Shown here in pieces: positions 29,241 to 47,412 of a stretch of DNA of 64,000 nucleotides (position 1 is its first letter; the number at the start of each line of letters is the position of its first letter). This DNA comes from an uncultured delta proteobacterium (GTDB taxonomy: Bacteria; Desulfobacterota; WTBG01; CAIYCZ01; CAIRTM01): NCBI GenBank assembly GCA_963804955.1, contig CAWDSQ010000020.1:41349-105348 (forward strand). Reading direction: 5' to 3'. A program made the position numbers and the translations under genes. Under the pieces are notes generated by a model. That model ran no database searches. It was not told the origin of the DNA and saw nothing but the letters and a program-made list of their open reading frames with translations.

Positions 29241-30706
29241 TGCTGTCCTCCTTTTCGTTTAAATAACTGCCTGTCCACTGGCCGGGATTGAGAATGCCAT
29301 GAGGGTCAACAACTCCTTTGACAGCCTCAAACAGGCTCTTGAAGCCGGGGGACCAGCACGAAGCGTTCAGGTCTGACATAAATCCCTGATTGTAGACATC
29401 AATTGATCCAAGGCTGTGGGCGTATTTCTGAAAATCAGCCATTAACGTGCGGGCAAAGGCGATGGCAGCCGGATTGTCAACATCGGCAAAGAAAACGTCG
29501 ATTTCACCGACGATGGTGCTTGGGTCAGAAGCGGTGAAAAACTCCCAGGTTGTGCGCACGCGAAGGCCCAGTTTTTCTGCTTCTTTCAGCCTTTCATTGC
29601 GCCAGGCGATCAGCTTGTTATATACTTCCGCAAAGCCCTGCCGCGGCAGGTTGAAGGGCAGCCATGCCGGAACGCCGAAGCTGTTGAAAATGGCCATCCA
29701 GTCCATTTCGCTGTCCTCGCCCGTCGGCGTTCCCATGGCTTCAGCCATGGCGTCGAGCATGAAGTTGCGCTGCGCCCCGCACTGATCGGCAAGGCTGTTG
29801 ATGGTGGCAAGCCGTGCTTCAACCTCGGCCTCCTCGTGGCCCTGTATCATAGCCTGCACGGTAAAGGGCGCTACCTCGTCGGTATCACCCATAAAATTTT
29901 TCATTGCCCCGGCGCCGAAAACAAGCACCGGGATCAAAGCGAAGCACAGGGCGGCGTTCAACGTGGAGCCGCACGAGCTCAAGCGCAGGCTCGATTGCAT
30001 CAAAAGCGAAAATGCCAGCCCGCAGCTTGGCCGGGTGCTTCGTCATGCGGATGGTTGCCTGGGTTTTGATGCCGAAGGAGCCGCCATCGCCGATGAACAT
30101 TCCGGCAAAATCCGGTCCGCCCAGATTACGGTTGTAGGCAAGGGTCTGGTGCACATTGGTGCCGGGCCCGCCGCCGGTTTGCACAATGGTGCCATCGGCA
30201 AGCACCACGGTGATGCTCACGATATCGGTCCAGAGACCCGCTGCGCCTGCAACGCCTGATATCCATCCGCCAAGTGATACCATATGCAAAGGCGCAAAAG
30301 GCGACCACATATAAAAACCATTCTTTTTGCAGGCATGCACCATTTTGCCTAAGATAATGCCTGCTTCGGCCGTGACGGTCATGCTCTGTGCATTAACATC
30401 GAGAACCCGGTCCATGCGCGTCATGTCCAGCAGCACGGTACGGTCCGGGTCGCCCTTGGGCTGGCCGTAAATAGTAGCCCCGCCGCCGCGGGTCACGATG
30501 GGCACGCGGTGCCGATTGCACAGGGCTGCAATGCGCGACACCTCAGCGGTTGAGCCCGGCCGCACAACCAGCGCGGATTCTGTTCCGCCGAAAAGGCTTG
30601 CATCGCGGGTATAGGTGAATCGCGTCACCGGGTCGTCGGTCACGTACTGCTCGCCGACGATTTCATTCAATTGTTTTTTGAACTCACCAGATAAGGCTTC
30701 CGTCAT
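29233..30706 (-). CDS. FAD-binding PCMH-type oxidoreductase (GlcD-like), copy 1; one frame break near 29950
   Basis: ORFs 29885..30739 and 29233..30003. The likely start is MTEALSGEF (ATG 30706, RBS AAAGGA). The FAD domain reads ALVVRPGSTAEVSRIAALCNRHRVPIVTRGGGATIYG. Its end overlaps the Fe-S gene start by 8 nt. Confidence 0.85.
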
Positions 30707-30725
30707 GACGTCTGTCCTTTCACGG

Positions 30726-31351
30726 TTATTTGATAACAAATTTGTCGATTAAAGCTTTGATGCCAAGGCGCACATCCTCTTCGGTATAGCCCATGACGCG
30801 CCTGCCATGGCTTTCAAGTATCAGGCCCTGGTACAGCATCTGGCTTGAACCGCCGATGATCTGCCGTATGACCTGAGGCTTAAGCGCTGACTCGATAAGA
30901 CCCTGTCGCTGCCCGTCGGCAATAAGGTCGTCGAGGGTCAGCTGCAGCTGGCCGGGCGCCTCCAATAATCAGCGCATATTTTTTTTGCAGATTTTCATCC
31001 TTCATCTTTCTCAGTATCGGGCAGAACTTCTTTGAGGATATGCCCCCAGTAGAGATTCTTGTTGCTTTGTGACATAAGCTCCATGAGGGCTGCAAATACG
31101 GCATGGAGCCGCTCAACCGGTGTTGAGCACCGGGCGAGCTTTTGATTGATCAGATCATTGACGCTTTCAATAAAGAAAAGAATGACATCCAGCAGTATGT
31201 CGAGCTTGTTTTCAAAACAGACATGCACAAGGCCTTTCGAGACGCCTGCCTCTTTCGCGATTTCGGCGATGGTGGTGTACTGGTAGCCTTTACAGGCGAA
31301 AATTTTCATCGCCGCGTTGAGGATTCGCGTCTTTTTATCCTGTTCGGTCAA
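30726..31351 (-). CDS. TetR-family regulator; frame break(s) near 30970-30995
   Basis: The N-terminal HTH is KKTRILNAAMKIFACKGYQYTTIAEIAKEAGVSKGLVHVCF (ORF 30995..31351). The C-terminal ligand-domain text continues in ORF 30726..30965. Confidence 0.8.
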
Positions 31352-31369: not shown

Positions 31370-32644
31370 TTACAGCATATCGCTCAGGCTTGTTTTGGTG
31401 CGGCTGTTTATTTTTTCATGCAGTTCAGGCCGCTCAGACCGGATCAGCTGCTCATGTTTAAGAATAGCATTCCACATGAGCCGCGGAGATTTGTACTGGT
31501 TGTAGGTGCCTTCAAGAATCTCATCTTCTATGAGTCCGAACAGATAGTCAAGCTCTTCATCGGTGTAGGTGGGCACCAGGGCGAATCCCTGCGCAACCTG
31601 CAGGTAGTCATCTCCATTAAACTCGAAGGACTTCTGCCACCATGCAGTGTACTGGCTAAATCCGCCCCGTCCCTCAAGCTCATCGGCAACAGCGCCTGCT
31701 GCACGAAAGCCGCAGGCAAGGGCGCCCTGCATCTCGACTTCGACATAGGCTGCTGCATCGCCGATCACGAGAACATTGCCTGCATGCGGCACTTTCAGGG
31801 ATGAGTAGGCCCGTGCAGCGCAGCCGGTTTTTTTTATAACCCGTGCATTCCGAAGCGACGGGGAAAGAGCGCCTTTATGTGCGATATCCTGAAACATTTT
31901 TTCCGGCGGGCTGTTTTTGTTGCCGATAACGACCAGGCAGGCGGTGTCGGCATCATCAAGGGCCGTGTTGAGCGTAAGCGGTGCAAGACCGCAGTAGGTA
32001 CGACCGAAATACGTCTTCAGGGCGCTGGGTTCAAAACCGGCAACGCCTTTCAGAAAATAGATGACGCACAGAGCAGAAGCAAAGCATTGGCGATTGCTGT
32101 TTATTCCCATGCGCTCAGCAATCCGGGAATTGACGCCGTCGGCAATAATAAGCTTGCGGGCATTGATCACGTTTTGTTCCCCTGCGCTGGTTATGAAAAG
32201 CGCAACCATATCACCGCGGTCAACAGCGCCGGTTACATGCGTGCCGGACCGCAATTCAGCACCCGAAGCAGCAGCTGCATCCCACAGGTTCCGGAGCATG
32301 AGTCCCTTGTCGATTTTGATTACAATGGGGCTTTTGTCCGGATAGGCAAAATGAATGGTCCTGCCGGCAGGGGAGATGAAATACTTATCGGTGACATCGA
32401 CAGTCGGGCCTCCGTAGTCGACACAGAAGCCGTTGTTGAGTGATACAATTTTGCCAGCTTTAAGTCGGACCGTGTCGCCCTGAAAGTCTTTGTCCATAAT
32501 GAGCTGTTCGCAGCAGGCACGGGTGATGAGCGATACATCCTGTCGCTTTTCAAGCAACACTGTTTTCAATCCCAGTTCAGCGGCGGTTTTTGCCGCCATC
32601 AGCCCCGCAGGGCCCGCTCCGATTATTGCAATGTCATACACCAT
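31370..32644 (-). CDS. FAD-dependent oxidoreductase, geranylgeranyl-reductase (BchP/ChlP/FixC-like) family, copy 1
   Basis: The start is MVYDIAIIGAGPAGLMAAKTAAELGLKTVLLEK (ATG 32644 after AAGGAG). A GDAA motif (VLVIGDAAAYVEVE) is present. The distinctive ~100-aa C-terminal extension is shared with the paralogue at 42416..43736. Confidence 0.85.
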   Translation of the reverse strand: MVYDIAIIGAGPAGLMAAKTAAELGLKTVLLEKRQDVSLITRACCEQLIMDKDFQGDTVRLKAGKIVSLNNGFCVDYGGPTVDVTDKYFISPAGRTIHFAYPDKSPIVIKIDKGLMLRNLWDAAAASGAELRSGTHVTGAVDRGDMVALFITSAGEQNVINARKLIIADGVNSRIAERMGINSNRQCFASALCVIYFLKGVAGFEPSALKTYFGRTYCGLAPLTLNTALDDADTACLVVIGNKNSPPEKMFQDIAHKGALSPSLRNARVIKKTGCAARAYSSLKVPHAGNVLVIGDAAAYVEVEMQGALACGFRAAGAVADELEGRGGFSQYTAWWQKSFEFNGDDYLQVAQGFALVPTYTDEELDYLFGLIEDEILEGTYNQYKSPRLMWNAILKHEQLIRSERPELHEKINSRTKTSLSDML

Positions 32645-32666
32645 GGCAGTCTCCTTATTGAATATG

Positions 32667-32915
32667 TCATGCACCTGATGGAAGCAGAGGGAATTTATAC
32701 ATACCGAACAGAAAGGCTATATGGTCGATGAACCAGGCGACCTGAGTTACCGTAATAATGCTGTGATAGGCTGCTATACGGCGGGCTCTGCGCAGCAGGA
32801 GGGCTGCAGGAAACAGCAGCCACACGACAAAGCCGATCACGATGGCAAAAACAATCACGCTGTTTGTTCCCGGCAGGTTCATCTTTAGGGCCGTGACTCC
32901 CATCATCGGCAGCAT
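32667..32915 (-). CDS. Small hydrophobic protein (two predicted TM helices), hypothetical
   Basis: 82-aa ORF with VIVFAIVIGFVVWLLFPAALLL and VAWFIDHIAFLFG. It ends 20 nt upstream of the flavoprotein gene. It has no homology signal I can name. Confidence 0.35.
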   Translation of the reverse strand: MLPMMGVTALKMNLPGTNSVIVFAIVIGFVVWLLFPAALLLRRARRIAAYHSIITVTQVAWFIDHIAFLFGMYKFPLLPSGA

Positions 32916-33092
32916 GCTCTACCAGGAAATCAAGCAGCACTGCCCAACTCATTATTAGCACAGAAAAATGGCTGCCATTGTCGCGATACGACCAAGCCGC
33001 TCCGTGATAAAGAAGCAATAGGCAACCGTGTACAGTGTTTCACTGAGCGTCATTTTAGGTTTCCCTTCTACTAGTGCACAATAAAATTGAAT

Positions 33093-33200: not shown

Positions 33201-33248
33201 TTGACAAGACAAATTCAATAGTCTAATTAATAGTTGTAAGTTCAACTA
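33201..33248 (+). promoter_or_regulatory. Candidate marR promoter (TTGACA-17-TAATTA) abutting the palindrome TAGTTG-N6-CAACTA
   Basis: TTGACA at 33201-06 and TAATTA at 33224-29. The inverted repeat TAGTTGTAAGTTCAACTA is at 33231-48. The same TAGTTG-N6-CAACT motif recurs at 33817. Confidence 0.4.
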
Positions 33249-33349
33249 ATTTTGATTTTTATATTGGACTTTGTCTGATGGCTTACATTTCTGTTATTTT
33301 CTAGAATACCAATAATAACTACAAAAGAATTAGCCTGGCTATCTGATCC

Positions 33350-33850
33350 ATGGACTATACAGCAGAATTTAATCCCAATGATTCATTATCTTATCTCCTG
33401 GACAAGACAGCAAGAGCCCAGTTCTGCCGCTTGCAGAATGTTTTTACAAAAGCCAATTACGATATAACGGTTGAACAGTGGATGATTCTGCTGCTGCTTT
33501 GGAAAGAAAACGGCCAGTTTCAGCAGCAGCTTGCTGATGGTATGTGTAAAGATAAAACAACATTGACGCGGCAAATAGACGGACTTGAGAAGCGCAACAT
33601 TATTGTGCGTGTACCTGACAAAATAGATCGAAGACAAAAACGTATTTATCTAACCACGAAAGGTAAAGATTTGGAACAGGAACTGATACCGCTGGGCATT
33701 GCAAACGGACTATGCGCAATAAAAGATATTCCCCCTGAGCATATTCAGATTTGCAAGGATGTACTGCGTAAAGTTTATGAAAATCTTATAAACAGGTTAA
33801 TATTATATTGCATAATTAGTTGCATAGCCAACTGTGTGCGGCGCAACTAA
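33350..33850 (+). CDS. MarR-family transcriptional regulator
   Basis: 166 aa with a winged-helix core ITVEQWMILLLLWKENGQFQQQLADGMCKDKTTLTRQIDGLEKRNIIVRVPDKIDRRQKRIYLTTKG. Confidence 0.88.
   Translation: MDYTAEFNPNDSLSYLLDKTARAQFCRLQNVFTKANYDITVEQWMILLLLWKENGQFQQQLADGMCKDKTTLTRQIDGLEKRNIIVRVPDKIDRRQKRIYLTTKGKDLEQELIPLGIANGLCAIKDIPPEHIQICKDVLRKVYENLINRLILYCIISCIANCVRRN
33817..33834 (+). promoter_or_regulatory. Second copy of the TAGTTG-N6-CAACT palindrome, 32 nt upstream of the SDR-2 start
   Basis: TAGTTGCATAGCCAACTG lies within the last codons of marR. A further CAACTAA half-site is at 33844-50. Confidence 0.35.
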
Positions 33851-33865
33851 TATAAGGAGATACAA

Positions 33866-34671
33866 ATGGAACAAAGCGCAAAAAGATTTATAAATAAGCA
33901 TATTATTATTACAGGTGCGGCAGCCGGCATCGGCAAAGGTGTTGCTCACCGATTTGCTGACGAAGGGGGCAGGGTGGTTATTGCCGACAGGAACCGGGAA
34001 TGCGGTGAGGCAGTTGCGAAACAAATTACTGAATCCGGTGGAACCGCTGTCTATATTCCTGTTGATGTGGCTGATCCGGATTCAATAAATGAACTCATAA
34101 AAAAAGCAGCTGACGTTTTTGGGCCGATAGATGTCGCTGTGTCAAACGCGGGTATCAGCGAAACGCAGTCTTCAGCCCTTGATATTACCGTTGAGGAGTG
34201 GGACCGCGTGTATGACATAAATACCAGGGGGTCATTTTTTTTCTGCAAAGCATGCGCTCAGAATATGATGGATAATGATATCAAGGGATCAATCGTGACC
34301 CTGGGATCAATTGTAGCGCGCAGCGCGAAAGGCATGTCGGGGGCGTACGCTTCTTCAAAAGCTGCAATCATCATGTTTACTAAAACACTTGCAAAATGCC
34401 TTGCGCCCATGGGCATACGGGTAAATTGTGTTGCGCCGGGGATTGTTGCAACCGAAATATATAACGGTGTCGAAAAAGAGATGATGATGGAAAAAGATTC
34501 TTTTGCCGACTGGCTGGTAGAGCAGTCGATTGCAAGCGGCCAGCTGCTTATACCCCGTTGCGGTACGGCAGGTGATATCGCCTGGCCATTGCCTTTCTGG
34601 CATCCGATGATGCAGCCTATATTACCGCTCAAAACTTAAGCGTTGATGGCGGCATAGACTGGTGTTGGTAA
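33866..34671 (+). CDS. Short-chain dehydrogenase/reductase (SDR), copy 2; one frame break near 34585
   Basis: Motifs ITGAAAGIGKG, NAG and GAYASSKAAI. After ..GDIA the text continues in another frame as AIAFLASDDAAYITAQNLSVDGGIDWCW* (stop 34669-71), matching the C-terminus of SDR-1. Confidence 0.88.
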
Positions 34672-34702
34672 TACTGTCACGTAATTTATTACGGAGAGTA
34701 TC

Positions 34703-35182
34703 ATGACGAAAGCTTTTGGAAAAGAGATCCCCTGGGAAAAACAGCGGGATATGCTGATTGAAATGACCGCGCTGAAATTACCGATGCTTTTTCAATCTCT
34801 TGTTTCCGCGTACGGAGCAGATGAAGGAAAAAGGATATATGAAAAAATCTATGAGGAAGGTTTCAAGCAACGCTCAAGCCGCTTCAAGGATAAAGATATT
34901 GGCGATATCCTGATGGCCGAAATAGACATGTTCCCGGCAATGGGCTGGAAGCTGTGGGTTGAAAAGGTGGAAGAAAAGGGATCTGTTGCCTGGTATGAGC
35001 ATCTGGAAAAATGCCCGCATCTTGAGGCGACGAGAAAGTATAAATTGCCTGACCCCTGTTCTCTTATCTGCGACATGGATTGCACCTTAGGCGAGAAATA
35101 TAAAGTCGCACACTGGGAAAGGATGAAACACATGCCGGCAGGTGACAGCGAATGCTGCTTCAGGATTACCCGGTGCCCATAA
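34703..35182 (+). CDS. Small Cys-rich protein resembling the L-2-amino-thiazoline-4-carboxylic acid hydrolase (ATC-hydrolase-like) family
   Basis: 159 aa. The C-terminal pattern is CPHLEATRKYKLPDPCSLICDMDCTLGEKY..GDSECCFRITR. This matches the C..e....pe.c..fC..D......G...CxFr signature as I remember it for that family. Confidence 0.5.
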   Translation: MTKAFGKEIPWEKQRDMLIEMTALKLPMLFQSLVSAYGADEGKRIYEKIYEEGFKQRSSRFKDKDIGDILMAEIDMFPAMGWKLWVEKVEEKGSVAWYEHLEKCPHLEATRKYKLPDPCSLICDMDCTLGEKYKVAHWERMKHMPAGDSECCFRITRCP

Positions 35183-35249
35183 AATGTGTTTGCAGTTGCT
35201 GCTCATTGCTAGAGCAATCTGAATTAATAAATTTATATATCAGGAGGCG

Positions 35250-36239
35250 ATGTTACACATGACTAATGAAAATGCAGCATCAATTTTTAAGGTGGATGAA
35301 GATCTTTGCATTGGCTGCGGGATTTGTATTGATGCCTGTCCCATGAAGATTCTGGAGATTCAGGACGGGCTGTGCATTATGACGGACCCGGAAAAATGCC
35401 TTGAGTGCGGAACCTGCGAGCGTGCATGTCCTGAAAAAGCCATTACCATTAAAGTTGGCGCCGGCGCCAAAGCGAAAGCAACGTTAAAAACGGGCACAGC
35501 GGGAGCCACGGAAAGCGCGCGGGCCAAGTTCTACCCCATCCTTGATAAACTGACGGAAATGATACAGGTGGTCAGCCCGAAGCAGATATTCACCTTCGAG
35601 GGGCAGGATATCACGAGCCTCAATAATTTCGAAATCGATAACGAGCCCTCCTATTACCGGGCCTATACGGCGGACAAAATCGATAAGCTGGGCATATCAA
35701 GCTCGCTTTTCTTCGGGATTATGACCGCGGATGTGATGGTCCTGACGCCGTCCAAAGAATATGATATCCCCTATTTTGTAATGGACTGGGATGAGTCAGA
35801 AGAGCATATATTCTTTATCTGCGATCTTATGCCCGGCGATGATCCGGGAAGGAATAACGACTATCTGAACAAATATCTGTATGAGCCACTCGAAGAACTG
35901 TACATGAACTACACCATGTCCATACCCGGTCTGAAAAACAGCGTGTTCCACTGGGTGCGGTCCATCCATTCCCCCTATATCATCACCGGCTCCATAGAAA
36001 AAACCAAAGAGAACATTGAAATGCTTGCCAACTGCGCCTGTGATTACCTGAAGGCCTGGATCGAAATATGGAAAAAGGCAGAGCCGCAGGACCCCAATTC
36101 TCCGTACATGAAACTCGTGCATGAGCGGAGAAAAAACATCCGGGCAATATACAAAGAAAACGACCCCGGCGCCGGATCGCTGAACAAATACCTGGGCAAG
36201 GAGCTGGGGGCGACGGCCATTTCCATCATCGAGCCCTGA
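35250..36239 (+). CDS. Fusion of a 2x[4Fe-4S] ferredoxin domain with a ferredoxin-dependent-bilin-reductase (FDBR)-like domain
   Basis: 329 aa. The N-terminus carries CIGCGICIDACP and CLECGTCERACP. The remainder aligns by eye with PcyA/PebA-type FDBRs through YRAYTADKIDKLGISS..ADVMVLTPSKEYDIPYFVMDWD..IFFICDLMP and the C-terminal IYKENDPGAGSLNKYLGKELG. ATG 35259 is an alternative start. Confidence 0.6.
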   Translation: MLHMTNENAASIFKVDEDLCIGCGICIDACPMKILEIQDGLCIMTDPEKCLECGTCERACPEKAITIKVGAGAKAKATLKTGTAGATESARAKFYPILDKLTEMIQVVSPKQIFTFEGQDITSLNNFEIDNEPSYYRAYTADKIDKLGISSSLFFGIMTADVMVLTPSKEYDIPYFVMDWDESEEHIFFICDLMPGDDPGRNNDYLNKYLYEPLEELYMNYTMSIPGLKNSVFHWVRSIHSPYIITGSIEKTKENIEMLANCACDYLKAWIEIWKKAEPQDPNSPYMKLVHERRKNIRAIYKENDPGAGSLNKYLGKELGATAISIIEP

Positions 36240-36309
36240 TGTGGGCGCAACCGGGTTGTGCAGCATCATGATCAATGAAGGTTAAACAATTTAGATAAGG
36301 AGAACAGCC

Positions 36310-37022
36310 ATGGCAGAAATACTACAGTTTGCAGCAGAGGCAAAAAAAAGTCTTGAAGCGCTGCTGCCCCTGCAGCCCGTTGCTCTTGATCCACAGCTGC
36401 AGCATATAAAAACCGAGGGTGGCTCTGTCGATATCGAGCTTTTCAAGGCCGACAAGTTTGAAAAAATTGTTCTGTGCACGATAAACATCTTCGAAACCGA
36501 AGTGGTTGAGGCCACCGTTATGGCATGGCCCGATGAAAAGCACAATTTCCCCATTCTCTGGGGCAATCTGACCATAGTCCCCTATGTCATGAACGTTCCT
36601 ATCTTTGATTTCGTTCCCCTGATGGACCCGGTTCTCTATCAGGACTATGCAGATACCTACATTGAAGGAGTCAACGAGCTGAAAGCAGACGCCCTTGAGC
36701 GTGCTCGGGGATACGGTCACTCAATAAAGACGTAGTGCTGCCGTCAAAAACCATCTATACCCTGTCGCCGTACAGCCTTATTGCAAATATTAAGGAAGAG
36801 GGAATTCCTCTCGTCCCGCAGATCACGGATGCCTATATTAAGGCGTATATAAAGCTCTGGCAAAAGGCCGGGCCCGTGGAAAAGGCCGCTGATCTTGAGC
36901 ATTACGCAAAAAAGCGGGCTGCAACACGCACTCTTATGAAGGGCAATGACCCCGGCTACCCATTTATGATCGATGCTTTCGGGGAGGAAAAAACGCATAA
37001 GGTTTTTGATATTATTTTTTAG
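36310..37022 (+). CDS. FDBR-like protein (stand-alone paralogue); one frame break between 36699 and 36733
   Basis: ORFs 36310..36735 and 36735..37022. Matching blocks are LPLQPVALDPQL..GGSVDIELFKADKFEKIVLCT..ATVMAWPDEKHNFPILWGN..PIFDFVPLMD and the C-terminal KGNDPGYPFMIDAFGEEKTHKVFDIIF (compare PcyA QKNDKTRRVLEKAFGEAW..VLFD). Confidence 0.6.
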
Positions 37023-37500
37023 TTTACGGCAGCCGGTGTGCGGCAGAACACTGAAAAATTTATTGCTGCACATGGACGTTTTGACCCTTTAAAAATGCAA
37101 TTTAAACAGTTCTGTAAGGTGCAGGTAAAAAGCGATGCTGCTAGTGAGAACAGCGTGCGTACGATGAACAGGTTTAAGTGTGTTTTAATCGACACAGGGG
37201 TACTTACTCTGTATCTGCTTATAAATTTATTGCCGCTCAGAGTCCGTGATTATATTCTGGACAGAATGTTTCCACCTATCCGGGATACTCGGCACTCAGC
37301 GTATTCAAAAGGTAAGGAGCACCGTGCATAAATCATGAAAAAATTTTACCTGAAAAAAGTGTGTTGAATGACTAAATAGTTACTGTTTCAAGCGACCTTT
37401 TTTAAAAAGGTATGCTTAGAAAAGGAGGGTGTGATTGTCTTTTCAATCGTAAAAAGTTGTATGGACACAAAATAATTTTTTCTAAAGGAGTACGGGACTT

Positions 37501-39430: not shown

Positions 39431-39452
39431 AAGCTGCTTGTAAAGTCTAAAA

Positions 39453-40530: not shown

Positions 40531-41808
40531 TTAATACGTTTTTTGCAAATTCCCGACTGTGAACATATCCGCAGGAACATCTATGGTAATCGCCGGCTTG
40601 TAAAAATATTCCTGATCACTTAAGCCTGAATGGGTCCGTTGAAACTCTTCAAATTGTGTGGCCACAATGAACGGTTTTATTTGACCGGTCTTTGTCGGCA
40701 GTGGGCAGGTGTTATTCATGAAGCACTTCCAGAATTTGCCGTTGGAATCATAAATTTCCGTCCAGAGAATTATAGCTGTTTCGGGATCAAGGTACCAGAC
40801 ACGCTTGCTGTAAACATAATTGGGATCCTTGCTGATGACATCAATAACAAGCGTGTTGCATCGTTCAAGCGTCAAACCGTTTGAGAGGGCCTGTCCGGGG
40901 ATACGCGTCGTTGCTTTCATGTCAGTGTGCCTGCTGCAGAGGAGGTCTTTTTTACCTTTTAGTGTGTATTTGTTTCTGGTTAACTGGCCATCCCACAGGT
41001 ATTCATCATCATAGATTATATCTGAACCGTCAATTGCATCGGTACGTTGGGCCGTCGACATTCTTCTAATCCGCCTGAACTGGCTGTACCAAAGATATGC
41101 ATCATCTTCCATTTTCGGATCAATGTATCTGATATTGAACATGCGTGTATTTAAAAACTCAGCAGGTTTGAACATATGGAGGAAATATGCCCGATGCATT
41201 CCTTTCGGATTTTCGGCGACTGCAGGGAGGGGTTCTTTTTCAGTACGGTGAATGAAAAAGTATTCAGTGTACTCCTGATCTGCAATGCGATCGTTTTTTG
41301 CTGTAGGATTGATCGATGGACTGTAGCGTCGATATTTACAGGTATCTCCATGATTGTTGAACTCAAAATTATAGGCTGCTTCCATGCCGTCCGCCGGCTC
41401 AGGAAATGGACGCCCGGCTATTTCAGCATAGTTGGTTATCGTACCGTCCTGATTTTTTTTGACTGTTGACGCATACTTCCTTGTTGCATCAGAAAACCCT
41501 TTGGTTTCAGGTACAGGCTGGTAGGCGACGATAGCAAAGAAAAACCCCTCCGGAGGGGCGCCCCACTTTTCAGGTTCTTTTATAATTCCCACATAGGAGT
41601 CGGGCATATAAGCCGCAACCTGATCGATAGTTGCTTTATCTACTTTTTTCCCAGCCCAGGTTTTTTCCCATTCCCTGACTTTTGCCAGTTCATCAGGCGT
41701 GTATGCAGTGCCGATTACAGTTTGTGCTCCTGCAAGCGCCGGGGCCAGATACAGCAGGAGCGCTCCAAGCATCCAAACTCTGAACATGTACTGCCAGCTG
41801 TTTTTCAT
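40531..41808 (-). CDS. DUF1329-family periplasmic/outer-membrane-associated protein (LolA-like fold family)
   Basis: 425 aa with a signal peptide (..LYLAPALAGAQ). The characteristic IAGRPFPEPADGMEAAYNFEFN motif is present, and size and overall pattern are typical of DUF1329. Confidence 0.7.
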   Translation of the reverse strand: MKNSWQYMFRVWMLGALLLYLAPALAGAQTVIGTAYTPDELAKVREWEKTWAGKKVDKATIDQVAAYMPDSYVGIIKEPEKWGAPPEGFFFAIVAYQPVPETKGFSDATRKYASTVKKNQDGTITNYAEIAGRPFPEPADGMEAAYNFEFNNHGDTCKYRRYSPSINPTAKNDRIADQEYTEYFFIHRTEKEPLPAVAENPKGMHRAYFLHMFKPAEFLNTRMFNIRYIDPKMEDDAYLWYSQFRRIRRMSTAQRTDAIDGSDIIYDDEYLWDGQLTRNKYTLKGKKDLLCSRHTDMKATTRIPGQALSNGLTLERCNTLVIDVISKDPNYVYSKRVWYLDPETAIILWTEIYDSNGKFWKCFMNNTCPLPTKTGQIKPFIVATQFEEFQRTHSGLSDQEYFYKPAITIDVPADMFTVGNLQKTY

Positions 41809-42038: not shown

Positions 42039-42386
42039 TTAGTGGGCATCCCAACATTCATGGGCGATACCTTTCATATAATGAAAATATACCTTCTGCA
42101 GTGGGGTTGTCCTGATAACCCGCACCATGCCCAAAGGGAACACAACCGGCGCGCCGGTGCGCTGCTCAAAATCGTCAAGCATGGGCTTGAAGAGCTTCAG
42201 CGCATAGTTGAGCTCCGCCTGATCCTCGGTGAAAATTTCAGCAATTCCCTGCATATTCAGCCCGCGCACCGAGGTAATTGTGCGCGCGGAGGTGCCGATC
42301 CCGACCGCAGGGAAAGATCGTATGCTTGAACGATAGTGAAGATGGTAAAATTTTTGTCGGCCTGCGGTGGATATTAAATGATACAT
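42039..42386 (-). CDS. Hypothetical small protein (start uncertain; ATG at 42254 would give 71 aa)
   Basis: ORF directly downstream of flavoprotein copy 2. The C-terminal text is IAEIFTEDQAELNYALKLFKPMLDDFEQRTGAPVVFPLG... I recognise no family. Confidence 0.3.
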   Translation of the reverse strand: MYHLISTAGRQKFYHLHYRSSIRSFPAVGIGTSARTITSVRGLNMQGIAEIFTEDQAELNYALKLFKPMLDDFEQRTGAPVVFPLGMVRVIRTTPLQKVYFHYMKGIAHECWDAH

Positions 42387-42415
42387 CTGCTACAGCAGTT
42401 AGATAAATGCTCTAA

Positions 42416-43736
42416 TCACCCAGGGTGCGCGACTGCTGCTTCTTGAATTTTATCCCAGATTTCAGGCCGCTCTCTTTGAATGCGCTCATCGTGTTTGTGG
42501 ATTGCAGCCCACATCATGCGCGGTGAGTCATACTGGCTCCAGCTGCCGTTCAGGACCACATCGTCAAGCAGCGAAAACAGGAACACGACCTCCTCGTCCG
42601 TATAATACGGGATAAGGGCATAGCCGGTTGTAACCTGCATCATGCCGTCATCGTTGAACTCAAAAGTTTCAAGCCAGGTTTTGCCGTATTCGGCAAACCC
42701 GGGCTTACCCTCAAGCTCTTTTGCAACGGCATCTGCTGCCCAGTAGCCGCAGTTGAGCGCACCCTGGGCCTGCACCTCGACGAATGCCGCGGCATCGCCA
42801 ATCATCAGGCAGTTGCCCCGATAGGGTGTCTTCATGGGCGCAAAGGCCTTGGTGGTGCAGCTGTGCATGCGCTCGACTTTTGCGTTTTCAAACATCCAGG
42901 CAACAGGGCTCTCTTTGGTAAAATAATCAAACAGCTCCAGGGGCTTTTTTTCAAGGGATCCCACAAGAATCAGATCGGCCCAGTCGAAATGACCCGCCGG
43001 GCCCGTGCCCAGAAGCGGCGCAAAGGCGGAACCATAACACTGCCCCCAGAATCCGACCCATTCATTGGGGCTGTAATTTTTCACCCCTGACATATACAGC
43101 GCCACAACCGGAGCTGAGGTAAAATACATGCGACCTTCATTCATCCCGAGGGACTGGGCAATCTGCGCGCTGGCGCCGTCGGCCGCGATGAGCTTTTTGG
43201 CCTGAAGCCTGAAGCGCTTGCCTTCGCTCACGCATTTCAGCGTTACCTCTGTCGGGGCCATCCTTTGCCTCATAGCAGATCGTGTTGTTCATATAATCAA
43301 CACCAAGAGCAAGGACTTCATCAAGCAACTGCTGCTGCAGGCCGCCCTTGTCGTATTTCCAGGCAATGGGTTTCTTGTCGGGCCAGGCGTAATGGGCATT
43401 ATGCTTGAGATCAGCAGAATAATAATATTTATCAAGGCAGGGGCACAGCGGCCCGTTGTAGGTTATTTCCCAGCCGAATTTTTCAGATCTGATCTTATTA
43501 TCCGGGTTTGACGGCACCATGCGGTTGGGCCCTTCCATGGGCCGGCCCGGCTCAACAATAATCGTGTCGCCGTTATAGTTTTCATCAAGGATGATATGCT
43601 CGCTGCAATAGCGGGTTATCTTGCTGATATCTTTCCGTTTTTCGATCAGCGCTACTTTCAGACCCTTTTTTGCCGCCCATTTTGCCGCGTGAAGACCACC
43701 GGGACCCGCTCCTACGATTGCCACGTCATATGTCAT
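42416..43736 (-). CDS. FAD-dependent oxidoreductase, geranylgeranyl-reductase-like, copy 2; one frame break near 43260
   Basis: ORFs 43137..43736 ([33 protein letters not shown]) and 42416..43273 ([14 protein letters not shown]..). The C-terminal extension parallels copy 1 ([39 protein letters not shown]). Confidence 0.85.
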
Positions 43737-44972
43737 AAAATACCCTTCCTGAATTTTTTCGTAATTTTACTTCATCAATTCCAGCAACCGTTGCCATGGC
43801 CGGGCCGCCGCCGGCGCACAGGGAAGCGCAGCCGAGGGCCGCGCCCATGCGCTCCATTTCATGCAGCAGCGTCACCAGCACCCGAAGGCCCGAGCACCCG
43901 ACGGGATGCCCAAGGGATATGCCCGAGCCGTTGCGGTTGACGATATCCATGTTAAGCTTGTAGCCGTGTTCTTTTGCAAGCAGGTGCTCCACGCCCAGAA
44001 ACTGGGCGGCAAAAGCTTCATTTACTTCCCAGTAGCCGATATCGGCAAACGACAAGCCCGGCTTTTTGCAGCACCCGCGGAATGGCATAGGCAGGGCCGA
44101 TGCCCATGACCGAAGGCTCAACGCCCACGCTTGCCGTTGCACGTACGCGGGCCTGTGATTTGCAGGCCCAGATCGCGGGCTTTCTGCTCGCTCATAAGCA
44201 CCATGGCTGCTGCGCCGTCATTGACGCCGGAGGCATTGCCTGCCGTCACCGTTCCGTCTTTTTTGAAAATTGTTTTGAGGTTTGCCAGTGTTTCAAGCGA
44301 GGTGTCCGCCCGGGGATGTTCGTCAGTGTCAAACACAATAGGTGCCTTTTTTCTGCTTAACCTCGACCGGCACGGTTTCGGCTTTAAAGGTTCCGGCCTT
44401 GATGGCTGCGCATGACCGGGCATGGCTCAAGCACGGCAAGCTCGTCCTGCACCTGCCTGCTGATGCCAAAGCGGGCAGCCACGTTTTCAGCCGTTACACC
44501 CATGTGGCAGTGCTCAATCGAGCAGACCAGCGCATCCAGAAGCATGGCGTCTTCAATTGTAGCCGGTCCCATGCGGTACCCTGTGCGGGCCTTCTGCAGA
44601 AGATAGGGGGCCATGCTCATGTTTTCGACACCCACCACAAGGCACACATCTGTTTCTCCAAGCATGATATTGCGGGAGGCGATTTCAAGGGCGCGCATTG
44701 AGGAAGCGCACAGCTGATTGACCGTGCAGGCCGGGCTTTCCCAGGGTATGCCGAGTTCGGCCTGTATCTGCCTGCCGATATTGCCGCCAACGCCTGCCTG
44801 AATGACATTGCCGCAGACAAGCTCATCGACCTGTTCAGGCGTTGATGCCCGCCCGCTGCATCGCCTCAGCGCCGACGATACGACCGAGCTCCCGTGGGTG
44901 AATCTCTTTCATTGATCCCAGAAAATCGCCTATCGGTGTTCTGCAAGCGCTGACGATAACAGCTGCATTCAT
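43726..44972 (-). pseudogene. Acetyl-CoA C-acetyltransferase (thiolase) with four or more frame breaks
   Basis: The start is MNAAVIVSACRTPIGDFLGSMKE (ATG 44972 after AGGAGG). Fragments 44617.., 44384.., 44118.. and 43726.. carry thiolase text: [56 protein letters not shown] and GHPVGCSGLRVLVTLLHEM..CAGGG. Confidence 0.8.
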
Positions 44973-44997
44973 ACTGCCTCCTGTACGATTTTTTTAA

Positions 44998-45769
44998 TTA
45001 CTTTCGCATCCAGCGCTGATATTTGCGCATGCCGTCTTTTTCAAAAGCCGAGCTGTTGACCGTAACCTGGTTGACGGTTATTTTGCTCAGAAGCATGCCT
45101 TTTTTGATCATTTCACGGGCCTGCTGCGGTTCGATTTTCATTTTTTTTGCAAGCTCCTCGTAGGGATAAATTTCTACCAGGACTTTTTCGAATTCAGGGT
45201 TTGATCCATCAATAAGTTCAGCAGTGCCGATAAACTGTGCGCACAGCACCGTACCCCATGTTTTGAATTCTTCATGCCAGTTGAGGCTCACCTTTGGATT
45301 CTGTTTTATGTGCAAAAGCTTCGTGGTGCCTTTTTCATGCAGTCCGTACAGTGTCATGGTGTCAGGATCAAAGGCGAAATCGGCTGTGGTGGTAAGCGGC
45401 ACATTATTGAGGCTGGTGCCCAGCACACAGGTTCTTTTGCTGTTTTTTGCCGCCCATGAGTTTTCCGATTTCAGCCTTAAGCCGGTCCTGCGGCATGACG
45501 CCCTGACCTGCGGCATACTTAAGATAGGCCCCATGCAGCCAGGCCTGCGTTGCGGTTGTCTTTGCATCCAGCTTTACCTCATGGCAGTCATTGCAGGAAA
45601 CACCCTGCGGTATTTCGGGATGATTGTCGCTCAGGCCGCTTGCAGCGGCGTCGATCTGTTTGGGCTTTGCCGCCTTTTTCTGTCATGCTGCGGCAGCGAA
45701 AGAAAAGCTCCCGAACATGAGAACAGCTGCAATGCCGGAAAACAATGCTGTATACATAACCTTCTTCAT
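44998..45769 (-). pseudogene. Exported protein: signal peptide, single CxxCH haem-c motif and a pyridoxamine-5'-phosphate-oxidase-like split-barrel domain; in-frame TGA (45683-85) and one frame break (~45455)
   Basis: My translation of the reverse strand from ATG 45769 (RBS AAGGAG) gives MKKVMYTALFSGIAAVLMFGSFSFAAAA-TGA-QKKAAKPKQ..GVSCNDCHEVKLD... ORF 44998..45567 carries TCVLGTSLNNVPLTTTADFAFDPDTMTLYGLHEKGTTKLLHIKQNPKVSLNW. Confidence 0.6.
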
Positions 45770-46010
45770 TACGATGAACTCCTTATTTCGGTTTATGTTT
45801 TCAGTTTTATGTACTATGGCAATTTTTTTTCTGCAGTGCTGAGTACTGACAGGTTGAAAAATCCAGTCGAAAATAGATCCCGTACTCTGCGGGCGTCAAT
45901 TTCGTCAGAAGCACCAGATAACTAAACCCGTATCGGTTAAAATAACCTTGAACAGGTCATTGTGAAATGCTGCTTAAAAAAAGTCTTTTTTATCTGTACA
46001 GCAAGGGTTG

Positions 46011-47275
46011 TTAGATCGCCCTGTTAACCAAATCAACCAGACTCAGCATTTTCAGCGGGCTGCCGATAGCGTTGATGGAATCCCCGAGATTCGACTCACA
46101 CCAGGGGCAGGAGGTGACCAGCGCTTCGGCTCCGGTTGATTCAGCCTCCTCAATGCGCTCGCGCGCTGTTTCAAGTGCAAATTCCGGAAATGCCGAGCGC
46201 ACTCCGCCGCCGGCGCCGCAGCACCATGAAAATTCCCGGATGCGCTCCATTTCCACAAGTTCAACACCCGGTATGGCTTTCAGCACATTGCGCGGTGCAT
46301 CGAATACGCCTTGTGCTCCGTAATTGCGCTCCCGCGGCGGCTCTGAGAGGCCCCACTTCACGCGCACGCCTTCCCACAGGTCCTGCGGCTCGCTGCCGCG
46401 GCCCAAATGGCAGGGGTCATGCCAGGTGACACGCATCGGCACTTCTTTCGTAAACTTCAGCCGTCCTTCCTGTATAAGCTGATCGAGATACTCGGAGCTG
46501 TGCTTTACCTCAAAATTCATTTTGCCGACTCCGGGGTACTGGCTTCTTAAAACTCCGTAGCATCCTGCGCATGAGGTCACGACGGTCTTGATGCCCAGGT
46601 CATTGAACATTTGAATATTGTCGGCCTGCATGTTCGCGAAACATGTCTACCATGCCCACCTTCAGCACCGGGCTGGCGCAGCAGGCCTCATTGTTTCCGA
46701 GAATGCCCGACATCAATGCCCGCATTCTGAAGAATACCGAGTGTCGCGCGGGACACCTCCTGCATATTGGCATTGTAGGAATACGTGCAGCCGGCAAAAT
46801 ACAGAACCTCGGCCTTTTCTTTGCTGATGTCTTTCACCTTCATTTTACGCGCCCAGTGACCGCGCCGCGAGCGGGGCTGGAGCCAGGGATTGTTGTTCTG
46901 GCGAATGCTGTCAACCGCAGGCATATGGCCGGGCAGGGGGCCTTTGCCCTTGGCAACGGCAAGTGCACGCAGCTCCTGCAGAATTTCAAGGGGCTCCATG
47001 TCGCGGGTGAACTTGCAGGTCACGTCACATCCGCCGCACAGGGTGCAGGTGTAGATGACCTCGGCGGCTTTGTCCGTCATTTCCACCTCGCCTTCCAAAA
47101 GCGCCCGGGCAAGATCAAAGCGGCCCTGGGCTGAGTAAGCGTCAAATTTGTATTTCTGCATCGACGGGCAGATCCGGGCCCGCTCTTTGCTTTTGATACT
47201 CCATGGGTGCACCCATTTGCACATGGAGCAGCGCTCACAGTTAACCAGGTCCCAGCGGTATTTTTCAAGACTCAT
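46011..47275 (-). CDS. Fe-S oxidoreductase with CCG domains (GlcF/HdrD-like), copy 2; one frame break near 46640
   Basis: The start is MSLEKYRWDLVNCERCSMCKW (ATG 47275). Also present: CTLCGGCDVTCK, then (ORF 46011..46631) VVTSCAGCYGVL, WHDPCHLGR, WCCGAGGG and SCPWC. Confidence 0.85.
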
Positions 47276-47412
47276 TGGTTCTCTCCATTTTAGATTTTGG
47301 ATTGCGGAGTTTGGATGCAGTACAAAGCAAATATCCAAAACAGCCGCTTGTATTTAGTTATTCATCTGAATCGGTTTGGGATTTTTGGATTTTCAATCAG
47401 CAATCGTAAATC

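Follow-up and report, generated by a model that had tools for sequence, protein, structure and literature searches.

A ferredoxin fused to a bilin reductase-fold domain, and its adjacent paralogue, in a conserved gene unit of uncultured Thermodesulfobacteriota

An SDR, a protein with the fold of ferredoxin-dependent bilin reductases (FDBRs) that usually carries its own ferredoxin (Fd-FDBR), and a stand-alone FDBR paralogue (FDBR2) together make up the core of an operon unit that is conserved among uncultured, presumably anaerobic Thermodesulfobacteriota. We describe this unit in a 64-kb stretch of DNA (the window) from an uncultured bacterium of the sulfate-reducer type and in related loci. 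Fd-FDBR and FDBR2 probably do something new, because there is no sign of the O2-dependent haem-opening step that normally precedes FDBRs. In the reading that we prefer, with a probability of roughly 0.45, they are a self-sufficient two-step reductase pair that acts on an imported bilin-like conjugated substrate in anaerobic catabolism or detoxification. As MAGs and SAGs are the source of every sequence, strict anaerobiosis was inferred from taxonomy and O2-sensitive enzyme content.

Results

The preliminary description of this DNA had read the ORF at 35250..36239 as a double ferredoxin module continued by an FDBR part, and profile searches bear out both halves of that reading (Table 1). Translation probably begins at the ATG at 35259, where the orthologues also start. 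The N-terminal domain, of about 55 aa, is a bacterial 2x[4Fe-4S] ferredoxin whose clusters are predicted from two CxxCxxCxxxCP motifs (C20-C30 and C50-C60). The Pfam models Fer4 (aa 12-68, E 1.4e-14), Fer4_7 and Fer4_10 all exceed their cutoffs, and the eight Cys are all invariant or nearly so in 31 Fd-FDBR sequences. In the linker that follows, pLDDT falls below 50 at aa 71-74 and 79-86 of the AF2 model, and the alignment has no conservation and varies in length. Fe_bilin_red (PF05996) matches aa 163-319 with 48.3 bits (E 1.3e-12; gathering cutoff 31). When the core was compared as a profile with the PDB, the matches were HY2 (E 3.9e-13), PebB (1.6e-8), and RCCR (3e-4), and the scores of 52.7 bits for HY2 and 37.6 for PebB against 18.8 for PcyA are a measure of similarity, not of phylogeny. 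The AF2 model (pLDDT 87, pTM 0.85) matched HY2, PcyA, PebB, RCCR, and PebA in the PDB by Foldseek (TM at most 0.74, best E 1.8e-10). FDBR equivalogs are absent from the best 25 of the 125 NCBIfam matches of Fd-FDBR, and the nearest representatives outside the family score 20-45 bits, compared with FDBR equivalog cutoffs of 206-327.

Table 1. Positions of the FDBR-fold genes, their domains, and neighbouring genes in the window
Feature	Position	Strand	Evidence and remarks
Fd-FDBR fusion gene	35250..36239	+	329 aa; ORF, Pfam, homologues, AF2, Foldseek, dN/dS
2x[4Fe-4S] ferredoxin domain, aa 12-69	35283..35456	+	CIGCGICIDACP and CLECGTCERACP; Fer4-family matches
Ala/Lys/Gly-rich flexible linker, aa 70-89	35457..35516	+	low pLDDT, variable alignment
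FDBR-fold catalytic core, aa 90-329	35517..36236	+	profile matches to PDB; invariant D179, D192, SPY motif, D305-P306-G307
FDBR2, stand-alone FDBR paralogue	36310..37022	+	236 aa once repaired; two 1-nt insertions break the frame
Classical SDR oxidoreductase	33866..34639	+	adh_short E 1.5e-54; tightest-linked neighbour
MarR-family regulator	33350..33850	+	MarR E 1.4e-13; first gene of plus-strand operon; 8/29 loci
ATC_hydrolase-like Cys-rich protein (accessory)	34703..35182	+	PF14196, 48.6 bits
Small membrane protein, ~125 aa, frameshifted	32667..33053	-	tblastn to 127-aa gene of locus L004; 10/29 loci
GGR-superfamily FAD flavoprotein 1	31370..32674	-	FAD_binding_3; 10/29 loci
TetR-family regulator, frameshifted	30726..31351	-	9/29 loci
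FAD_binding_4 dehydrogenase and Fer4_8/CCG iron-sulfur subunit, both frameshifted	28018..30739	-	Pfam; tblastn frame changes
Second cluster-type SDR copy	27185..27991	-	adh_short_C2 E 1.9e-63; 67.5% identical to cluster SDR of locus L004
Second redox module	42039..48956	-	PNPOx fragment, GGR-like 2 (split), thiolase (split), PNPOx-like, Fer4_8/CCG (split), FAD_binding_4 (split)
DUF1329/LolA-like outer-membrane protein	40531..41808	-	PF07044 E 1.3e-35

The next gene had been taken for a stand-alone FDBR paralogue with one frame break. The paralogy stands, but comparison with intact 236-aa orthologues in two related loci (L007, 11061-11771; L008, 5801-6511) places two single-base insertions in the gene, at ~36700 and ~36719; it is uninterrupted in these loci and in more than 60 further sequences. 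The two halves of the window copy match complementary parts of the Fe_bilin_red profile (positions 3-124, 28.8 bits; positions 151-220, 19.8 bits), and 81 of 88 FDBR2 relatives, the near-identical intact ones included, have a precomputed PF05996 match. Alignment of FDBR2 with the Fd-FDBR core by hhalign gave a probability of 98.6% at 21% identity, and profile matches were again to HY2 (3.9e-7) and PebB (1.4e-5). Identity with the PcyA, PebA, or PebB equivalogs was considered and rejected, as the halves score 21.7 and 12.3 bits where the NCBIfam cutoffs are 206 and 263. FDBR2 was modelled through an 88%-identical orthologue (P0174; AF2, pLDDT 92.7), whose top Foldseek matches in the PDB are all FDBRs or RCCR (PebB, TM 0.85; PebA, 0.82; best E 6.1e-12). 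Judged by these models, both proteins have the cofactor-free alpha/beta/alpha fold of FDBRs and RCCR. The profile-HMM and structural comparisons that had been proposed as checks both came out in favour of the FDBR assignment.

Residue equivalences were drawn from Table 2 of Frascogna et al. 2026 (PMC13446030), and invariance in Fd-FDBR was scored over 31 sequences. The position of PcyA His88 is occupied by Val162 in Fd-FDBR and Thr69 in FDBR2, and that of Asp105 by an invariant Asp179 in the former and an invariant Asn86 in the latter; a non-His residue in both copies and a catalytic Asp in the fused copy only had already been noticed in the preliminary description. The equivalent of HY2 Asp256 and PebS Asp206, in the NDPG motif, is invariant in both proteins (D305 and D213). 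By alignment, Fd-FDBR retains both FDBR proton-donor Asp residues (the equivalents of PcyA Asp105 and HY2 Asp256), and FDBR2 retains the second, with Asn at the first as in plant HY2. The H88/D105/D256 signatures are Val/Asp/Asp in Fd-FDBR and Thr/Asn/Asp in FDBR2. Equivalents of PcyA His88 and Glu76 are absent from both.

Of 82 Fd-FDBR homologues, about 70, in independent metagenomic sequences, are proteins of 318-336 aa in which Fer4 and Fe_bilin_red are fused. At species level, 20 of 27 MAGs have the fusion, and Thermodesulfobacteriota predominate. In a sister clade the ferredoxin is a gene of its own, encoding 73-103 aa and lying ~20 bp upstream of the FDBR core. The preliminary description had noted that the novelty would be lost if the fusion dissolved into two genes once sequencing errors were corrected; a continuous ORF in ~70 independent sequences shows that it is genuine. 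FDBR2 follows immediately downstream of Fd-FDBR in ~19 of 27 genome loci and is non-adjacent in about one third of loci, so that a two-enzyme relay need not be obligatory.

Pfam confirmed the SDR, ATC_hydrolase-like, and MarR neighbours named at the outset. A cluster-type SDR with 65-70% identity lies inside the ±10-kb locus in 18 of 29 loci, mostly directly adjacent, and a MarR gene in 8; the ATC_hydrolase-like gene, present in L008, L009, and L011, is dispensable, being missing in the 93%-identical L007. The C-terminus of the window SDR is frameshifted, so that tblastn covers residues 1-233 of 268. Frequent flanks of the SDR, (Fd-)FDBR, and FDBR2 unit are FAD_binding_4/FeS-CCG, GGR-like, AKR-Fer4, AOR, TetR/MarR, and DUF1329 genes. 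The FAD_binding_4 dehydrogenase is found in 12 of 29 loci and its Fer4_8/CCG subunit in 11, AOR adjoins FDBR genes in 6 loci, and the same gene set as in the second redox module accompanies Fd-FDBR in L007, L022, L023, L030, and L032. In 8 loci, PAS sensor kinases are encoded on the opposite strand less than 10 kb away. The label BchP/ChlP-like, given earlier to the flavoproteins at 31370..32674 and 42416..43736, was overstated, and neither is BchP/ChlP: for the former, TIGR02023 scores 46 bits against a cutoff of 343 and the GGR model TIGR02032 reaches 79 against 158.8. The small membrane protein has no Pfam match. Homologues of the DUF1329/LolA-like protein lie near FDBR genes in L017, L026, L028, and L082, and the window protein is a candidate for hydrophobic-substrate uptake. 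The conserved neighbourhood fits reductive catabolism of a hydrophobic conjugated substrate, without naming that substrate; the linear tetrapyrrole, chlorophyll catabolite, or polyene of the preliminary description would be hypothetical candidates. For the GGR-like proteins, thiolase, SDRs, and AOR, catabolism of an isoprenoid, a polyene, or an aromatic compound would be at least as good a setting as a bilin reading.

Pfam scans of ~66 window ORFs, most of at least 150 aa, found no haem oxygenase, globin, V4R, phytochrome, or photosynthesis family, much as the preliminary description had reported for haem oxygenase, phytochrome, and photosynthesis genes. Haem oxygenase, globin, and V4R are likewise absent from the annotated relative loci L001-L006, L077, L081, and L082. 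None of the loci showed an enzyme that could generate the substrate (haem oxygenase, ChuW-type radical SAM, or PAO), so the tetrapyrrole assignment follows family precedent only.

Discussion

In the mechanism that we propose, the fused ferredoxin would take the place of the free ferredoxin of classical FDBRs and deliver low-potential electrons, one at a time, to a conjugated substrate held in the pocket. Radical intermediates would receive their protons from the Asp residues, and in this way one C=C bond would be reduced by 2e-/2H+. By the precedent of PebA and PebB, FDBR2 may then reduce the product of Fd-FDBR a second time, with a different regiochemistry, and it would probably be fed by the same ferredoxin. 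The electrons might come from the aldehyde:ferredoxin oxidoreductase or the FAD_binding_4/FeS dehydrogenase encoded nearby. The most likely substrate would be a linear tetrapyrrole that resembles a bilin, or something closely analogous, which is imported and destined for catabolism or detoxification rather than chromophore biosynthesis. This suggestion draws on the absence of haem oxygenase, on the genes for TetR/MarR regulators and DUF1329/DUF1302 outer-membrane proteins, and on the reductases and dehydrogenases around the unit (SDR, FAD_binding_4/FeS-CCG, GGR-like, AKR-Fer4, AOR, and FMN reductase).

Among characterised proteins, HY2 and PebB (tomato HY2, 6KMD; Guillardia PEBB, 6QX6) share the alpha/beta/alpha fold of the pair and are its best profile matches and among its top Foldseek matches. 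The Asp256 of the C-terminal DPG of HY2 is kept in Fd-FDBR and FDBR2, and the Asn of FDBR2 at the PcyA Asp105 position is that of plant HY2. However, identity to HY2 and PebB is only 15-20%, the HY2 Asp116 equivalent is missing, there is no haem oxygenase partner, and the hosts are non-photosynthetic anaerobes. Nor is a free plant-type ferredoxin implied: where FDBRs use a free soluble ferredoxin, the predicted 2x[4Fe-4S] donor here is fused (~70 of 82 homologues) or encoded by a dedicated gene ~20 bp upstream. Identity to any characterised FDBR is 15-20% at most, which tells against a bilin reading. PebA and PebB are encoded by neighbouring genes and catalyse sequential steps. The cyanobacterial proteins are likewise two adjacent, distantly related FDBR paralogues, a likeness that suggests consecutive 2-electron reductions with the intermediate handed over. 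The present pair is nevertheless non-orthologous to them, with NCBIfam scores far below the cutoffs, and differs in that one member carries a covalent donor and an SDR belongs to the unit.

The niche that we propose, in which anaerobes that lack haem oxygenase reduce linear tetrapyrroles, is that of the bilirubin reductase BilR and the anaerobilin reductase ChuY. BilR is an OYE-type flavo-FeS enzyme and ChuY an NAD(P)H Rossmann enzyme; their folds and cofactors are unrelated to those of the pair, and a ChuW-type gene was not seen in the loci. RCCR, which in plants acts downstream of the O2-dependent PAO, has the same fold with comparable Foldseek TM (0.65-0.79), and it is catabolic and ferredoxin-dependent, as we propose for the pair. 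Identity of Fd-FDBR with RCCR was rejected, as RCC_reductase (PF06405) scores 17.4 bits, under its gathering cutoff of 24.9. In a published analysis of the family, Schekmanbacteria sequences fall in the RCCR outgroup (PMC10151467).

FDBR relatives in non-photosynthetic bacteria, mentioned in the preliminary description, are indeed on record as the pre-PcyA proteins that heterotrophic bacteria carry (Pre-1 to Pre-3; Rockwell et al. 2023, PMC10151467; Frascogna et al. 2026, PMC13446030). We consider it very unlikely that the pair simply belongs to these lineages, making phytochromobilin or PEB from biliverdin with nothing new about it. The Pfam family is the same, pre-PcyA proteins also lack His88 and Glu76 of PcyA, Pre-1 and Pre-3 clusters also have a separate Fe-S protein, and Asp at the D105 and D256 positions is common to Fd-FDBR and Pre-2. 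However, the signatures differ: they are Asn or Thr/Glu/Ser in Pre-1, Asn/Asp/Asp in Pre-2, and Thr/Asp/Arg in Pre-3 (PMC13446030, Table 2), whereas the His88 equivalent here is Val or Thr, not the Asn of Pre-2, and the Thr occurs only in FDBR2, where it is combined with Asn instead of Asp at D105. The defining gene contexts, namely haem oxygenase, a BBAG globin, a V4R pair, and an Fe-S protein for Pre-1 and Pre-3 and a B12-binding protein with a globin for Pre-2 (PMC10151467), are absent from the window and from the annotated related loci. The known hosts are Myxococcales and diverse aerobes rather than Thermodesulfobacteriota, the best profile similarity of the pair is to HY2 and PebB and not to PcyA, and the pre-PcyA papers (PMC10151467, PMC13446030) do not mention a ferredoxin fusion. 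We attach just as little weight to the idea that the fusion was mis-assembled or made by a frameshift, or that FDBR2 is a pseudogene and the pair non-functional. Many other genes in the window are frameshifted and FDBR2 itself is interrupted, which speaks for such an artefact or decay; but the fusion ORF is unbroken both in the window and in ~70 independent assemblies, and FDBR2 is intact elsewhere, as described above. Because the window is riddled with frameshifts, the break in FDBR2 says nothing about biology. Both genes are under purifying selection (dN/dS 0.11-0.19 for Fd-FDBR and 0.10-0.12 for FDBR2), and as the FDBR2 value holds on the window lineage there is no relaxation. The break stems from faulty assembly or from a lesion of very recent date and does not mark an old pseudogene.

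A reading that deserves more weight, although we still hold it to be somewhat improbable, keeps the architecture and the radical, proton-coupled chemistry and changes the substrate to a polyene, carotenoid, isoprenoid quinone, or aromatic or phenolic intermediate, reduced catabolically together with the GGR-like proteins, SDRs, thiolase, and AOR. The recurrent neighbours are indeed generic for C=C/C=O redox and beta-oxidation-type chemistry (GGR-like, SDR, thiolase, AKR-Fer4, FAD_binding_4/CCG, and AOR), DUF1329/DUF1302 and TetR/MarR genes are typical for catabolism of hydrophobic substrates, tetrapyrrole-related genes occur in none of the loci, and the nearest relatives score far under all named FDBR equivalogs. 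Against this, conservation is strict at both proton-donor Asp positions and in the NDPG motif, and to our knowledge tetrapyrroles are the ligands of all characterised members of the fold (FDBRs, RCCR, and remotely CPO); we know of no precedent for an FDBR with a non-tetrapyrrole substrate. It is unlikely that the pair is biosynthetic, with an O2-independent enzyme opening an endogenous tetrapyrrole and the pair turning it into a reduced bilin-type chromophore or cofactor for a sensor or enzyme encoded elsewhere. A biosynthetic role is that of classical FDBRs and of pre-PcyA proteins (PMC10151467), and PAS sensor kinases lie in the neighbourhood. However, PAS proteins are ubiquitous and here lie on the opposite strand, a globin, a GAF/PHY acceptor, a lyase, and a ring-opening enzyme are all missing nearby, and TetR/MarR control together with outer-membrane uptake proteins points to catabolism.

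FDBRs are textbook cofactor-free radical enzymes and are known to us solely from the making of photosynthetic or photosensory pigments, after an O2-dependent haem oxygenase. The study of their origin ties the FDBR fold family as a whole to oxygen and infers that the relatives of PcyA are all ultimately O2-dependent and arose after oxygenic photosynthesis (PMC10151467). The anaerobic Thermodesulfobacteriota clade departs from this pattern, with an O2-sensitive 2x[4Fe-4S] donor, a second FDBR and an SDR, a catabolic redox setting, and no haem oxygenase. It is conceivable, if on the doubtful side, that the clade represents an oxygen-independent FDBR branch in which the self-wired [4Fe-4S]-FDBR of strict anaerobes and its partner FDBR reduce, without haem oxygenase, linear tetrapyrroles or a wholly new non-tetrapyrrole class. 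Such a branch would contradict the inference that all PcyA relatives depend on O2 and would disclose a route, hitherto unrecognised, by which bilins or chlorophyll catabolites are turned over anaerobically in sediments and soils. If these findings hold, Fd-FDBR would be the first natural self-sufficient FDBR architecture, of use in studies of mechanism and in engineered bilin production without a ferredoxin/FNR system. The pair would then indicate that bilins or conjugated pigments related to them meet an unrecognised anaerobic fate in soils and sediments, or that the fold accepts a new class of substrate, and it would add evidence on whether the fold is older than oxygenic photosynthesis.

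Architecture and fold of the fusion protein

Open reading frame calling recovered the two adjacent genes of the preliminary description, the fused copy Fd-FDBR and its stand-alone paralogue FDBR2 (see the table of window features). Fd-FDBR carries Fer4-type Pfam domains at residues 12–68, and the fold of ferredoxin-dependent bilin reductases (FDBRs) proposed for the remainder was borne out by profile search, residues 163–319 matching Fe_bilin_red (PF05996), whose gathering cutoff is 31, with 48.3 bits (E 1.3e-12); RCC_reductase scored 17.4 bits, under its cutoff of 24.9. Since orthologues begin MTNENAAS, translation probably starts at ATG 35259.

A homologue search using the FDBR-like domain only as query gave 82 cluster representatives with at least 48% identity, except for one short fragment. 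About 70 of these are 318–336 aa long and carry both Fer4 and Fe_bilin_red, and they come from many independent assemblies; their database names are solely '4Fe-4S binding protein', 'PreA subunit' or 'ferredoxin'. Accessions of the family include MBN2106579, MCX5899338, MEI6128425, MFC1670708, and MFC1592057, for which the FDBR literature searched gave no match. When 31 full-length members are aligned, each of the eight cluster cysteines is invariant or almost so, and D179, W180, E182, C191-D192, D198, S241-P242-Y243, and D305-P306-G307 are invariant, while the inter-domain segment varies in length and sequence. The alternative that the ferredoxin and FDBR-like parts are really separate genes does not apply to the lineage of the window, in which they form a single gene. 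In a sister subclade (L022, L023, L025, L026, L030, L032, L033, and the more distant L077), a separate ferredoxin gene encodes 73–103 aa and stops about 20 bp upstream of a core gene that is unfused and encodes 240–243 aa. Fusion in one lineage and a split arrangement in its sister argue for the ferredoxin as a dedicated redox partner.

The structural comparison likewise upheld the proposed fold. For the fused protein, the AF2 model (pLDDT 87, pTM 0.85; linker residues 71–86 of low confidence) matched HY2 (E 1.8e-10), PcyA, PebB, RCCR, and PebA in the PDB by Foldseek, with target-normalised TM scores of 0.65–0.74 at 15–20% identity; the remote fold relative CPO was a weak match. For FDBR2, the model of an 88%-identical orthologue (pLDDT 92.7) matched PebB (TM 0.85, rmsd 2.0 Å), PebA (0.82), RCCR (0.79), and PcyA (0.75). 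The best sequence-profile matches were HY2 and PebB (3.9e-13 and 1.6e-8 for the core; 3.9e-7 and 1.4e-5 for FDBR2), with RCCR (3e-4) and PcyA (8.5e-3) weaker, and the two paralogue families, fused core and FDBR2, align at 21% identity (hhalign probability 98.6%). The nearest non-family relatives (28–35% identity) reach none of the NCBI PcyA, PebA, and PebB equivalog cutoffs, and both proteins therefore fall in an unnamed part of the superfamily. The FDBR-fold Foldseek matches also include 8xqw_H and 8xks_P (E about 1e-7), which represent one subunit of the chloroplast import motor Ycf2/Orf2971-FtsHi of Chlamydomonas, so the fold also occurs within a complex without a known bilin-reductase role.

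Residue equivalences were taken from HY2 alignments of both copies and the equivalence table of PMC13446030. As the preliminary description had proposed, the catalytic histidine (PcyA His88) is replaced in both copies, by Val162 in the fused copy and Thr69 in FDBR2, and the catalytic aspartate (PcyA Asp105) is kept only in the fused copy, as the invariant Asp179. FDBR2 has an invariant Asn86 at this position, the same residue as in land-plant HY2. The position of HY2 Asp256/PcyA Asp220 is Asp305 in the fused copy and Asp213 in FDBR2, both invariant and within an NDPG motif. Judging from these residues, both copies keep the machinery of proton-coupled reduction, each in a version of its own.

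Distribution

An exhaustive search covering 1.84 billion representatives yielded no more than 76 clusters at E ≤ 1e-3, with 9 reaching E ≤ 1e-30, and the Fe-S fusion is limited to five 50%-identity clusters. The family occurs in 27 of 185,579 species-representative genomes, all MAGs or SAGs and none an isolate; for most of them the label reads 'uncultured delta proteobacterium' or Thermodesulfobacteriota, and a single one belongs to Spirochaetota. Some loci have a third FDBR-like paralogue (L001 16500-17204, L011 12435-13226, L026 11755-12573, and L033 5278-5997), and that of L001 has diverged so far that neither window paralogue detects it at E ≤ 1e-3. These additional copies hint that FDBR-fold proteins have radiated more widely in these bacteria, in a group still unnamed.

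The frame break in FDBR2

The two FDBR2 open reading frames match Fe_bilin_red at positions 3–124 (28.8 bits) and 151–220 (19.8 bits), and are thus two halves of one domain. The gene had been described as having one frame break; the break is present, but it consists of two extra single bases, near 36700 and 36719, relative to L007 and L008. The former (CAVRBJ010000038.1) is the closest relative of the window, syntenic at about 93% nucleotide identity (L008, about 88%), and both have an intact 236-aa FDBR2 at the corresponding position. After repair, dN/dS of the window gene is 0.117 against L007 and 0.102 against L008, compared with 0.132 for the intact L007–L008 pair, indicating purifying selection. 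Relative to intact orthologues in the related locus L004, the frame is changed mid-gene or the end lost in TetR, one FAD_binding_4 gene, both Fer4_8/CCG genes, the second GGR-like gene, the SDR C-terminus, and FDBR2. Given the low dN/dS, the intact orthologues, and the many frameshifts of the window, the FDBR2 break is either an error of assembly or a lesion that arose very recently and does not indicate decay of the gene; a pseudogene reading was rejected on the same grounds.

Across window positions 27000-51000, the majority of genes above about 1 kb are split into at least two open reading frames relative to intact L004/L008 orthologues. This suggests an assembly prone to indels, perhaps from long reads, and calls for caution with any pseudogene call in this region. 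The cyanophycin-synthetase-like gene is probably split by frameshifts as well.

Gene neighborhood

Features of the window (positions in the window; empty cells, no entry)
Feature	Position	Strand	Description
MarR regulator	start 33350	+	plus-strand run
SDR	start 33866	+	plus-strand run
ATC_hydrolase-like gene	start 34703	+	plus-strand run; 480-bp gene stretch 34671-35152
Fd-FDBR	35250..36239	+	plus-strand run; 329 aa; two CxxCxxCxxxCP motifs at N-terminus
FDBR2	36310..37022	+	plus-strand run; split into 141-aa and 95-aa ORFs
Divergent run	27185-33053	-	~125-aa membrane protein, GGR-like flavoprotein, TetR, FAD_binding_4, Fer4_8/CCG, second SDR
Segment downstream of FDBR2	37048-42409		FG-GAP repeat protein, 250-aa membrane protein, DUF1329 outer-membrane protein
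DUF1329/LolA-like outer-membrane protein	40531-41808		
Second module	42039-48956		PNPOx fragment, GGR-like 2, thiolase, PNPOx-like protein, Fer4_8/CCG, FAD_binding_4
FAD_binding_4 dehydrogenases	28018-30739, 46011-48956, 49952-50752		two adjoin a Fer4_8/CCG iron-sulfur subunit (GlcD/GlcF-like); third near another TetR at 51384-51971
Large secreted/surface repeat proteins	14330-20433, 37501-39430		NHL, MopE-type metal-binding, TSP3, Glucodextranase_B, CarboxypepD_reg, FG-GAP
Cyanophycin-synthetase-like gene	7726-10361		Cyanophycin_syn N-terminal domain, Mur_ligase_M, Mur_ligase_C; over three ORFs
Examples of split genes	28018-30739, 30726-31351, 42416-43736, 43726-44950, 46011-48956		

The genes of the plus-strand run are separated by 16–71 bp. 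In a scan of 32600–37600, promoter-like sites were fewer than the shuffle expectation and terminator-like sites lay mainly within genes. Neighborhood conservation was surveyed in 27 genome loci, with L001 and L004 added for clustering (29), and tblastn with the window's genes agreed with unbiased clustering of all open reading frames. FDBR2 lies directly downstream of Fd-FDBR in about 19 of the 27 genome loci. The following counts out of 29 are lower bounds, given the shortness of many loci: SDR (65–70% identical) 18, FAD_binding_4 12, Fer4_8/CCG 11, GGR-like flavoprotein and small membrane protein 10 each, AKR with a Fer4 domain and TetR 9 each, MarR 8, thiolase 7, aldehyde:ferredoxin oxidoreductase (AOR) 6, and FMN reductase and PNPOx-like protein 5 each. 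The suggested conserved neighborhood thus holds for SDR, Fd-FDBR, and FDBR2, but not for the ATC_hydrolase-like gene, which is absent from L007 and most loci and is therefore accessory, ruling it out as a core component. The window, L008, L009, and L011 all carry the 480-bp gene, and L007 has 3 bp in its place (9901-9904), a presence/absence polymorphism within the operon. Downstream of FDBR2, L007 has about 3.2 kb of unrelated sequence (11797-15020) in place of window 37048-42409, and the second GGR-like gene is where synteny returns. In L008, L017, and L020, too, Fd-FDBR has an FG-GAP homologue nearby. The BchP/ChlP identity once proposed for the GGR-like flavoproteins was rejected.

Starting from FDBR2-type proteins, the same gene repertoire was found in shuffled order: L081 has SDR, FDBR2, FAD_binding_4, and FeS/CCG, and L082 has DUF1302, AOR, FDBR2, a ferredoxin of 68 aa, DUF1329, and MarR; a further FDBR lies 8 kb off. 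A tungsten-type AOR (AFOR_N + AFOR_C, about 650 aa) adjoins FDBR genes in several lineages (L015 11079-13031, L016, L017, L018, L028, L032, and L082 5928-7871), and could be a low-potential electron source or a BamB-like reductase. Locus L077 (48% identity) encodes at 9669-13034 a ferredoxin (80 aa), an FDBR (240 aa), a 155-aa unknown protein, a 303-aa NIR_SIR + Fer4 protein, and a second FDBR (235 aa). The NIR_SIR domain is typical of sirohaem-dependent sulfite/nitrite reductases, and a tetrapyrrole-cofactor-type enzyme lies between the two FDBRs.

In keeping with the preliminary description, Pfam found no haem oxygenase (HO), phytochrome, phycobiliprotein, or photosynthesis family, nor globin or V4R, in about 66 window ORFs (most at least 150 aa), an absence that is strong but not absolute because 13 ORFs have no Pfam hit and frameshifts may mask domains; nor were these families found in the pre-annotated related loci.

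Predicted function and comparison with known families

We propose that the tethered 2x[4Fe-4S] domain would take the place of free ferredoxin and pass electrons one by one to a conjugated substrate within the pocket of the FDBR, with protonation by Asp179 and Asp305. FDBR2, with Asn86 and Asp213, may carry out a second, different reduction, after the precedent of PebA/PebB. The SDR would act either before or after the FDBR steps, and electrons may be supplied by AOR or by the FAD_binding_4/FeS dehydrogenase.

Our leading reading, held at a probability of about 0.45, is that the substrate may be a bilin-like linear tetrapyrrole taken up from the environment. Family precedent favors a bilin-like compound, while DUF1329/DUF1302, the regulators TetR/MarR, and the lack of HO point to uptake. 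The main rival, in which a reductive pathway of this kind acts on a conjugated substrate other than a tetrapyrrole, would use the same redox neighbors and departs from the family precedent; it is the less probable of the two. A biosynthetic role would fit the precedent of classical FDBRs, but is improbable beside the features pointing to uptake.

The pre-PcyA proteins (Pre-1 to Pre-3) are likewise FDBR homologues in heterotrophs, and are active biliverdin reductases (PMC10151467, PMC13446030). Membership of Fd-FDBR and FDBR2 in this group is nevertheless very improbable: no pre-PcyA context feature, such as the HO, BBAG globin, and V4R proteins of Pre-1 and Pre-3 clusters or the B12-binding protein and globin of Pre-2 (PMC10151467), is present at the genes, and the residue signatures differ too. 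That the pair reflects artefact or decay is scarcely credible, the FDBR2 break notwithstanding, considering its intact orthologues and constrained sequence. The finding is real and concerns a known kind of enzyme with a predicted function. New are the domain architecture, pairing, context, and host range, and the pair is set apart from pre-PcyA by published context and signatures. Ca. Schekmanbacteria sequences have been placed in the RCCR outgroup (PMC10151467), and two newer uncharacterised FDBR clades are of unstable placement (PMC13193486). In the literature searched, we found no paper on a ferredoxin-FDBR fusion or on FDBRs in Desulfobacterota, and a search for PF05996 likewise gave no relevant paper.

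It has been argued that all known PcyA relatives are ultimately O2-dependent (PMC10151467). To this argument, a clade that has O2-labile clusters and occurs in presumed anaerobes in which no HO was found is directly relevant.
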